DNA of 64,000 bases from Saccostrea cucullata. Taxonomy: Eukaryota. The notes beneath the pieces are model-generated. The model saw only the letters and a list, made by a program, of their open reading frames with translations, was not told the DNA's origin and ran no database searches. The translations under genes were made by a program, and so were the position numbers. Of this stretch, positions 53,877-56,579 are shown piece by piece (position 1 is the stretch's first letter; each line of letters opens with the position of its first letter). Location: positions 372,001 to 436,000 of the forward strand of contig NW_026935833.1 in assembly GCF_032062105.1 (NCBI RefSeq), read 5' to 3'.

Positions 53877-55698
53877 CTTAAATAAGAAAGGTAAAGTAGT
53901 GAAATCATTCAATGAGGAATGCTAAGATTATGCTCAACACAAGCACGAGTGTTACTGCGTGAATGTTTCGAACAGCAATTCTACTAGGGAAGTGGTTTAT
54001 GCCACATTAATAAATCAGGGTAAATATCAATCTCTCCTTGCGTAATTAATTAACAATAAAAGGAGGAAAATTTTCTTTTTCATTGATTCGTTCTTGAAGT
54101 CAGATTCGGCGTCTGGAATTCAGTTCAGTTCACCTGAGGAAAATATGTCTGATCAAGATTTTCATATTTTCTACTTTTAATTAAATTCACAAAATAATGT
54201 TCTTTTTTATGTTCGAATAATTGGAATTCGTTCAAATAACAAAGGATTTTAATAAACAAACAAATTAAGAGCATTGGTGTTCCCCGTTTCGGTGACAAAG
54301 TATATAGGTACTGTTTCTGGCAAACTTAGGTATCTTGTCTTTGAGTTCTGTCTGGTTTTTCCATCATGCACAACAGATGTAAATTTTTAATGAATAAAAG
54401 TTAATTTAGTATTACAAGAATTTAAGTTTCATAAACTGCATCAAATTTAAGATGGTCATGAGATCAAATATCAGAATACACCCGAAAGGTCTTGTCATAA
54501 GTAATGCACAAATTTGAAAAAATAAAAAAATATGAGCCCCATCTCTTCTGGAGAAAAAATTATTACCAAACCAAGTTTTTTTAACAACATATAAATAGGT
54601 CAGACTTTAAGGACACGTGGTCAAAAACGCATTACGTCTTGCCACAGGTAATTCACAAATCAAAATATGGCATTTTTAAACACTCTCTTTCATTCAAAAG
54701 TTATATCAAATATATTTTGGAGGGTTTTGTCACAGTTTTGTCAGACGAGTCGAATTAAAACGATCTAAAGGCCGGTCAGTGTCGAGTGTGGAATGAACGG
54801 GATTGTAAAACGTCTCTTACGTGACTGAATTCAGTTTTATTGAGTTACACTATATTTCCCTTTCCACATTTCAACCATAGAGTCAATCTATAATCAAAAA
54901 TTCTACATTAGGCCTAATTGTGATTTGCTTCTTTACGCTGTCGTTTAATAGGCCCATGTCATACATCTTGCATCATAATACGCAAGTTTGGAGTTATTTC
55001 ATAGCAGAGCAACACCCATATTTTGGGCTACAAACAATACAGGCGTAAATACTCATTACTGTCATTAAAAAATATGAAGTAACGTTAAATGATATATATT
55101 TCAATCCATATTTTTCTTTAAAACGAAGGGACTTACAGAAATTTAAATATCTGTTGCTCTGAAACTTCCTAGGTCGCTGTGCAAAAAATTGTTTTGGAAA
55201 CTATTCAAAAATCTAATTGCAAGAAACTTATAGATGATCCAGATGAATCTACAGACGATGGCAAAAGTACAGATCCATCTACGTGTTCAAATTTTAATGA
55301 TTATTACACTGTATATTTTGTGCCCATTTATTAAAAGGTAAAATCTTAAAGTGCAAAATACATTGTAAGAAATAATACAGGATATTCATATAAAAAAACT
55401 CAATTAGTCTAGAAACGCGAATAAAAGCATTATGACATCGATTGCATCGAGTTCGGAAAACAGAAAATACACAATTCGTTGGTGGCGCCAAAAACTTAAT
55501 TTTCAATATTCAACTCTGGTCAGTATTGAAAAACAGTTTTAAATTGAAATTGATCGTTCAGTTTTCATTTCAATAGTAGATAAATACATTTTGTTCATTT
55601 TGGTAGATCTATTTACAGTACAGTTACTAGTAATTTTTGTTGAATTTGAAATAGCAATTAGCATAAAATTACATCCTTTTATAGGTCTATAACCTGGG

Positions 55699-55959
55699 AT
55701 GACAATGACTTTATCAGATGTTCTTCCGTTGGTTTTTCTTGTCCTGCTGCTCCCTATGCAAGCTATGACGTGTGTGACGGATTATTCCTCACCAGACGGC
55801 TGCGCGGATGTTGGCGGGGAGTGTAAGGCTTCGGCGGGGGAGTGTTACATGGTACCCACAATGTATTATGGAGACCAATGCTGCTGCTCCACGGACGAGT
55901 CCTGTAGATGGGTTCAACCCGACTCCAGTCTTGTAAAGAAAAGGGATGACGAACTGTAG
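55699..55959 (+). CDS. Orphan secreted cysteine-rich peptide precursor, 86 aa
   Basis: GC-richer island in AT-rich DNA. Acceptor (CATCCTTTTATAG, 55684) lies just upstream with an in-frame stop before the ATG; hydrophobic signal peptide, 8 Cys, KKR site and DDEL end; ATTAAA at ~56046. Confidence 0.85.
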   Translation: MTMTLSDVLPLVFLVLLLPMQAMTCVTDYSSPDGCADVGGECKASAGECYMVPTMYYGDQCCCSTDESCRWVQPDSSLVKKRDDEL

Positions 55960-56579
55960 ATACGCATGTTATTATTTAGAGTGCATTTATCAAAATGATA
56001 AATCAAAGTGATGTACCCATTGTGTGTTTAAAATGAAATTTCTATATTAAAACTATCACTGAAATTATTTTTATTCCTAAGCAGTGATTGTCATAAATTA
56101 ACATATATTTGAAAAAAAATGGGCCTGTTTTAGAATTTAATAGGTTAGTAGCGAAAAAATTAAGTTCATAATTCCATACATGTGTATCATTTTAATTTAA
56201 GATATAAATGCGTTATAAAAAAAAATTAAAATAAATGTTATTTTCTTCTTTTTATTGATAGAGAGACCGCCCTTTTTTCCTCAAACATAACCCTAGAAAG
56301 CATTGAAAGATTGTCCCCTTTTGTTGTAGTATAGTAAGAAAACGGCTTAGTTGTGGAGATGTTGCAACCCCCCCCCTCCCGTTTTCCATCACCAGCGCCA
56401 CAAAAACGCACGCACACACTCACTAGGATTGATTCCGACTTTTAATATTTTTTCCCCTTTTCTTTCGTTTGTCAACTCTTTTTTTTTTCAATTGAGAATT
56501 TCTGGGCTGTCCATTTCAACAATGTTCAAAATGCCACCTCACCTGTACATTAGTCAAGACCCCATGGCGAGCCTCTAGA

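Follow-up and report, generated by a model that had tools for sequence, protein, structure and literature searches.

A conserved eight-cysteine microprotein gene with a KDEL-like C-terminal end in the bivalve Saccostrea cucullata

Several small proteins of the endoplasmic reticulum (ER) combine a signal peptide with a variant, non-PROSITE C-terminal end. ERp18 (EDEL), AGR2 (KTEL), neudesin (KDEF), PATE (NEDL) and MANF/ARMET (RTDL) are given as examples in the main text of PMC2140024, which places the small proteins PATE, AGR2 and neudesin in the ER. The peptide reported here is encoded in a 64,000-nucleotide stretch of DNA (hereafter the window) and likewise has a predicted signal peptide, no transmembrane segment and a terminal retrieval-type motif. 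No sequence relationship to these proteins was found, however, and the peptide is much smaller, with a mature chain of 64 aa, while its own ending, DDEL, is a poor signal for receptors that carry D50 and E117.

Beta-defensins, the defensin-like peptide 2mn3 and the big-defensin C-domain share with the peptide a C-x-D-x-x-G-x-C start, a C-x6-C-x6-C spacing and a CC-containing strand. Whereas beta- and trans-defensins have six cysteines paired 1-5, 2-4 and 3-6, as set out in PMC7203481, the peptide has eight, with none between the third core cysteine and the CC, and is acidic with an E[L/F] tail; the E-values are 0.06–2 and there is no fold match. Three-finger domains (BAMBI and the activin/BMP receptor ectodomains) have in common with it x-[S/T]-C after the signal peptide, G-x-C-[Y/F] and a CC-x4/5-C box, and a CCC is also present in the type II receptor exon of the host. 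The 45-aa core is nevertheless too short for three loops and is predicted to form two hairpins, all family representatives have CC-x5/6-C without Asn where the host receptor exons have CC-x4-CN, and the peptide lacks a GPI or transmembrane anchor. The CS-alpha-beta fold of cis-defensins and scorpion toxins bonds a CxxxC helix to a CxC strand; the frame of the peptide has no CxxxC, and leads to this fold stayed at profile E-values of 0.67–0.83 and fold rows of TM 0.26–0.31.

In cnidarian SCRiPs the N-terminal part is an acidic propeptide that includes a dibasic site, and the cysteine triplet lies terminally. Their 8–10 cysteines with CCC near the C-terminus (Ueq 12-1, PDB 5LAH; as described in PMC6627431) are matched by the peptide, but here another cysteine and a tail of 14–18 aa follow the triplet and no such propeptide precedes it. 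5LAH was absent from the PDB sequence and fold matches of the family. The Mytilus MgCRP-I and other bivalve Cys-rich antimicrobial families are also short, Cys-rich bivalve peptides of the secretory pathway; the MgCRP-I type, as its abstract defines it, has six cysteines, a hypervariable mature region and a multigene organisation, unlike the peptide.

The gene, its transcripts and its neighbourhood

The features of the locus (plus strand throughout) and the host loci used for comparison are the following.

55389–55518 (+): candidate TATA box (55389) and non-coding first exon with a GT donor at 55519, inferred from a TATA/donor scan
55673–55684 (+): polypyrimidine tract and splice-acceptor AG (55683–84), from sequence
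55685–55698 (+): 5′ UTR part of the coding exon, with an in-frame TAA at 55690–92; open frame of 88 aa
55699–55959 (+): single-exon CDS of 86 aa (P0001), an ATG-initiated ORF with known homologues
55699–55764 (+): predicted signal peptide, aa 1–22, hydrophobic core aa 8–17
55771–55905 (+): eight-cysteine core, aa 25–69, C-x9-C-x6-C-x6-C-x11-CCC-x5-C, with invariant S31, D37 and G47
55936–55944 (+): KKR, aa 80–82, a lineage-specific dibasic site present in one of five clusters
55945–55956 (+): C-terminal DDEL, the species’ form of the family xxE[L/F] retrieval-type motif; E85 invariant, L/F last in five of five clusters
56046–56051 (+): ATTAAA, a possible polyadenylation signal; a second lies at 56225
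Host loci: KDEL receptor and BMPR2-like, BAMBI-like and type I receptor ectodomain exons (subtype names as we presume them), L065 (G000:C12779), L067 (C5989), L068 (C14955) and L069/L070 (C14202)

The in-frame TAA lies between the acceptor and the ATG and therefore rules out an upstream coding extension. An earlier sequence-only reading had marked 55684–56060, which runs from the splice-acceptor AG to just beyond the first ATTAAA. Its description of the product holds in most respects: the cysteines stand at 25, 35, 42, 49, 61, 62, 63 and 69 (spacing 9-6-6-11-0-0-5), the mature part (aa 23–86) is strongly acidic (pI 4.06, 12 D/E against 5 K/R), the N-terminus is signal-like by hydropathy (Kyte–Doolittle mean 3.28 over aa 8–17), and the ORF terminates in KKR-DDEL-stop. 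Signal cleavage would fall after A22. The internal 7-aa repeat that it had also pointed out is real but weak, with 3/7 identities in the query and 2–3/7 in five representatives.

The ORF was confirmed to exceed chance expectation. It is the sole one among the 53 window ORFs of at least 60 aa to combine a hydrophobic N-terminus with an even count of at least eight cysteines, and 300 simulated 64-kb windows gave one comparable ORF and none that also ended in E[L/F]. GC content is 51% in the CDS against 29% and 22% in the flanks.

Part of the window was present in 20 of the 23 public runs listed (10 studies); none held half of its words, and most runs therefore derive from a relative or a divergent allele. 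A check for transcripts, which the sequence-only reading had proposed, makes transcription probable: contigs lie over the peptide exon in all four runs compared, from four studies (one RNA on record, two guessed to be RNA and one of unknown type), at about 95–97% identity, although contigs reveal neither strand nor expression level. They span 55692–56115, 55692–56031, 55706–56057 and 55692–56008, the first passing the ATTAAA at 56046. Coverage by the contigs 55692–56031 and 55692–56008 (runs X5 and X9) is gapless, so the reading frame is kept. Matching ends at 55692, beside the acceptor, in the contigs of three of the four runs, and two contigs (runs X2 and X5) carry 60 and 37 extra 5′ letters that do not match there. 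Depth is zero in every run over 54648–55131 and appears only in runs X2 and X5 over 55132–55615, the bin that holds the candidate TATA box, the donor at 55519 and an alternative donor from the same scan at 55338. The break at 55692 and the depth in the latter bin make it likely that the transcript is spliced and begins with a non-coding exon. If the first exon contained the ATG at 55432 and were spliced from 55518 to 55685, a putative 34-codon upstream ORF would result, and its TGA would overlap the main ATG (ATGA).

The surrounding window carries several other genes and elements. Divergent from the peptide gene, a spliced four-exon coding gene occupies 49428–52586 (−), with its joints present in RNA contigs; its translation resembles what we take to be a Tctex-1-domain dynein light chain, Pfam gave no match for a 54-aa piece of it, and a motif near 52700 is presumably RFX X-box-like. 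About 700 bp downstream of the peptide gene, another gene starts at 56641 (+) with MAVDVLRERHPHVNFGVTRDGRIFFIE followed by a donor; we presume it to resemble the WW-domain start of PLEKHA5/7, and its 26-aa exon had no Pfam match. A tandem cluster of several glutathione S-transferase-like genes extends over about 24100–46400 (−), with repeated exons and a GST_N_2 match at E 0.014. The expressed multi-exon gene at 46774–48256 (+) gave only a weak Dus match in Pfam, and one of its exons has an RHYH..HHL motif that we take to be like that of uncharacterised HD-superfamily proteins. Broken reverse-transcriptase fragments at 34463–35929 (+) presumably resemble a LINE, and a highly repeated element at 50235–50511, with tRNA-like loose ends in RNA contigs, is probably a tRNA-derived SINE.

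Homologues and the C-terminal end

The peptide had been called an orphan, yet four clusters of homologues exist. A phmmer search of 1.84 billion representatives returned 29 matches, three of them short: P0002 (E 1.9e-27, 61%), P0013 (E 1.2e-5) and P0028 (E 7.8e-4); the 26 long matches, of which five were checked, were left out of the family. A profile built from the short matches added P0061 (E 7.3e-26, not itself in the profile), and a second profile round gave no further homologue. The P0002 cluster (39 members, 15 listed) includes Magallana gigas K1Q3X3, annotated as ‘uncharacterized’ and found on 547 contigs, and P0013 is the ‘hypothetical’ scallop protein OWF54257.1 of Mizuhopecten yessoensis; the P0028 and P0061 clusters have 15 and 4 members. 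Those homologues with a named organism come from bivalves (Pacific oyster and scallop).

In the host’s own genome (1.17 Gb) the peptide query matched one locus; the scallop homologue as query (E 2.9e-8) led to the same place, as did P0028 (E 1.6e-5; its four other weak matches are not paralogues). Three different queries and a motif pattern revealed no paralogue, and the gene is apparently single-copy, a lower bound since the searches score best candidates only.

All eight cysteines and S31, D37, G47, P74 and E85 are invariant in an eight-sequence alignment. Across the four homologue clusters the core shares 33/45, 29/45, 18/42 and 20/40 residues with the query. The signal peptide, by contrast, is poorly conserved: five representatives have 1–7 identities in 19–22 positions among them, and the homologues have 1–6 of about 20 residues in common with the query. 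For the two closest clusters the signal-peptide values are 4/19 and 6/20, against 33/45 and 29/45 in the core, which argues that the mature peptide is constrained. Hydropathy nonetheless finds one N-terminal hydrophobic stretch per protein in all five representatives.

The sequence-only reading could assign the peptide to no known family, and our searches agree with it: no Pfam family is assigned, no solved structure or fold match was found for the family, and neither a search with accession strings nor one of topical titles and abstracts, with subscription journals outside its scope, found a paper on it. ‘Undescribed’ is meant within that coverage; the inventory of three-finger proteins from invertebrates in the supplement of PMC13719153, and expression or proteome tables with gene identifiers of their own, could bear on it. 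We conclude that the locus is a real, conserved gene, probably transcribed, of an undescribed bivalve microprotein family.

The best-conserved non-cysteine feature of the tail is its end, which bears out the sequence-only reading’s view that a KDEL-like terminus is meaningful. The five clusters, query included, end in DDEL (query), NDEL, DDEL (P0061), KIEL and KNEF, all of the form xxE[L/F]; three of the clusters are mutually close, so that this conservation amounts to about three deep lineages. The form recurs in 34 of the 36 sequences examined, with P0052 and P0057 as exceptions. The P0052 sequence departs from the others ahead of the CCC, and that of P0057 continues past the stop behind KNEF, possibly an artefact of the gene-calling code; P0037 has a 2-aa insertion ahead of NDEL and the motif is still terminal. 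The linker from the last cysteine to the end measures 14–18 aa and has as few as 1/12 residues in common between clusters, and E[L/F] stays terminal despite indels just upstream. E85 is among only 5 invariant positions of the 56 non-Cys mature positions. DDEL, NDEL, KIEL and KNEF all fall outside the PROSITE pattern [KRHQSA]-[DENQ]-E-L, which the main text of PMC2140024 holds to be too narrow. In the AF2 model the tail is predicted to be disordered (pLDDT <50), hence accessible. The conserved end points to a KDEL-receptor retrieval signal, and as a family signal it looks like a real retrieval motif.

The host KDEL receptor, for which one locus was found, aligns without gaps to residues 31–117 of the solved KDELR2 and has D50, S54 and E117, with W120 in the next exon. 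According to PMC8248988, D50 and E117 are the gatekeepers that exclude DDEL in human cells, DDEL binds a vertebrate receptor with a Kd of 14.9 µM (1.94 for KDEL) and about 60-fold more weakly than HDEL does, and reporters that carry DDEL mostly end up outside the cell; the eLife paper states that no verified mammalian example of DDEL exists. Because the host receptor has both gatekeepers, retention of this species’ DDEL form is predicted to be leaky. In the human reporter screen of PMC2140024, N and K serve equally well at −4, −3 tolerates any residue but P, and F can stand in for L at −1 without loss. NDEL is listed there as an efficient motif; the main text of that paper does not name KIEL or KNEF, whose efficiency is extrapolated. 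Retrieval of NDEL, KIEL and KNEF is predicted to be efficient. ERp18 without EDEL moves to the Golgi, the acidic EDEL being needed for its ER location (main text of PMC2140024). Within the window, the last exon of a prenylcysteine oxidase gene (3901–4713, −; Prenylcys_lyase, E 1.6e-78) ends in KTEL, as does human PCYOX1 (PMC2140024); KDEL-variant tails are therefore in use in the host.

Candidate roles and folds

The reading that we favour, at roughly even chances, is a conserved bivalve disulfide-rich microprotein of the ER and early secretory pathway that cycles by means of its KDEL-type tail, weak here in its DDEL form. After signal cleavage at A22, the eight cysteines would form four disulfides, and the KDEL receptor would retrieve the protein by its tail, efficiently for NDEL, KIEL and KNEF and leakily for DDEL. 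As a small module locked by disulfides, the peptide could then bind a putative client in the ER or early secretory pathway. A fraction of the peptide may be released constitutively or upon ER-calcium depletion, like other weak-tail ER proteins (ER-tail proteins are described as released upon such depletion in PMC8276033), and KKR would at most trim molecules that had already escaped. The family is thus likely held and recycled in secretory compartments and not a freely secreted defence peptide.

AF2 predicts the order strand–strand–short helix–strand–strand, with a core pLDDT of about 67–80. The sequence-only reading had looked to a fold search for placement; the predicted structure found no fold match, and the three-finger, beta-defensin and CS-alpha-beta folds are weak leads. 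Carboxypeptidase inhibitor I68 (PF10468), also tried as a candidate, had no match in any of eight members and none above cut-off in the genome.

An alternative that we consider unlikely, yet take seriously, is an anionic defence or signalling peptide, beta-defensin-like or otherwise small and Cys-rich, that would be secreted constitutively; its acidic tail would be a pro-segment and E[L/F] would be kept for another reason. The predicted leak of DDEL suits it, as do ESM Atlas feature leads to beta-defensin clusters (0.76–0.79), a profile match to the platypus peptide 2mn3 (E 0.058–0.12) and a Defensin_int match at E 2.2 in two of eight members. All of these leads are below threshold, however; no fold matched, the Atlas lead for the M. 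gigas orthologue was another one (lycotoxin, 0.76), there are eight cysteines against the six given for trans-defensins in PMC7203481, and a single copy with a conserved core is unlike the hypervariable multigene MgCRP-I of the published abstract. The beta-defensin resemblance seen in the sequence-only reading thus survives as leads, none reaching threshold, while the single copy, the strongly conserved core and the net negative charge speak against the secreted immune or toxin effector that it had proposed.

Somewhat less probable is a shrunken derivative of a three-finger protein (Ly6/uPAR, BAMBI or TGF-beta-receptor ectodomain) that would have lost a finger and fused cysteines into the CCC, to become a soluble protein, mostly kept in the ER, that binds a membrane protein of the BMP/activin pathway or another one. 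It is compatible with the ER-retrieval explanation and adds only the fold and the client. The invariant G-x-C-[Y/F] and CC-x5/6-C speak for it, together with the GC-x6-C-x4-C-x12-CCC-x4-CN of the host BMPR2-like exon, a predicted strand order that opens with a two-strand hairpin, a scallop-member match to the BAMBI N-terminal domain (E 0.012, below cut-off) and alignment of two of five members to the host BAMBI-like exon (p <0.03, Cys-preserving shuffles). Yet the BAMBI match occurs in only one of eight members, 13 of the 15 shuffle tests, all uncorrected, are not significant, hhalign gives probabilities of 2.3% and 0.3%, the 45-aa core compares with 60–90 for LU domains in PMC13719153, no Asn follows the last cysteine, and no three-finger structure is among the fold matches. 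A more specific version, which we regard as a long shot, is a ‘two-finger’ miniature of the BAMBI/TGF-beta-receptor-type domain that would serve as a soluble ER decoy or escort of a growth-factor receptor or ligand. Tail strength would be tuned by lineage (KIEL, KNEF and NDEL strong, DDEL and KKR-DDEL leaky) and would set the amount released, so that the receptor or ligand might be controlled before it arrives at the surface.

The sequence-only reading had proposed that a convertase cut at KKR removes DDEL and so turns an ER-retained precursor into a secreted effector, which we now judge very improbable. Convertases act beyond the compartment of retrieval, and the furin consensus wants Arg at P4, which V-K-K-R lacks. 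KKR does stand immediately before DDEL in the query protein, and KK occurs near the end in two distant clusters; there, however, position −4 of the retrieval motif is itself filled by the second K, and dibasic sites are absent from the two closest clusters. Since KKR is confined to the query, one cluster in five, the cleavage switch is, on the family alignment, no family feature: homologues keep the Cys frame and the EL end, and the KR that the sequence-only reading expected alongside them is not kept. DDEL retention would moreover be weak from the start, and with D50 and E117 in the host receptor little ER pool may remain for such a switch. Least probable of all is a luminal peptide that binds metal or buffers redox state, with some of its cysteines (CCC) remaining reduced as ligands for Zn, Cu or Cd; an acidic, Cys-rich chain with an ER-type tail and a loose association with the GST cluster of the same window would fit, but the even cysteine number, fixed spacing and predicted beta-sheet core suit disulfides, and there are no metallothionein-like CxC/CxxC arrays.

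Meaning for bivalve cysteine-rich peptides

Small Cys-rich ORFs with a signal peptide are routinely read as antimicrobial or toxin-like in bivalves. With its conserved ER-retrieval-type end, constrained core and apparently single copy, the present family more likely serves the secretory pathway as a housekeeping or regulatory microprotein. It offers a cysteine scaffold without a match among solved structures in these searches, and a natural series of tails (KIEL, KNEF, NDEL and DDEL) on one scaffold that bears on whether an animal with a D50/E117 receptor uses DDEL at all. If it proves to be a true truncated three-finger protein, it would represent a new minimal version of that fold.
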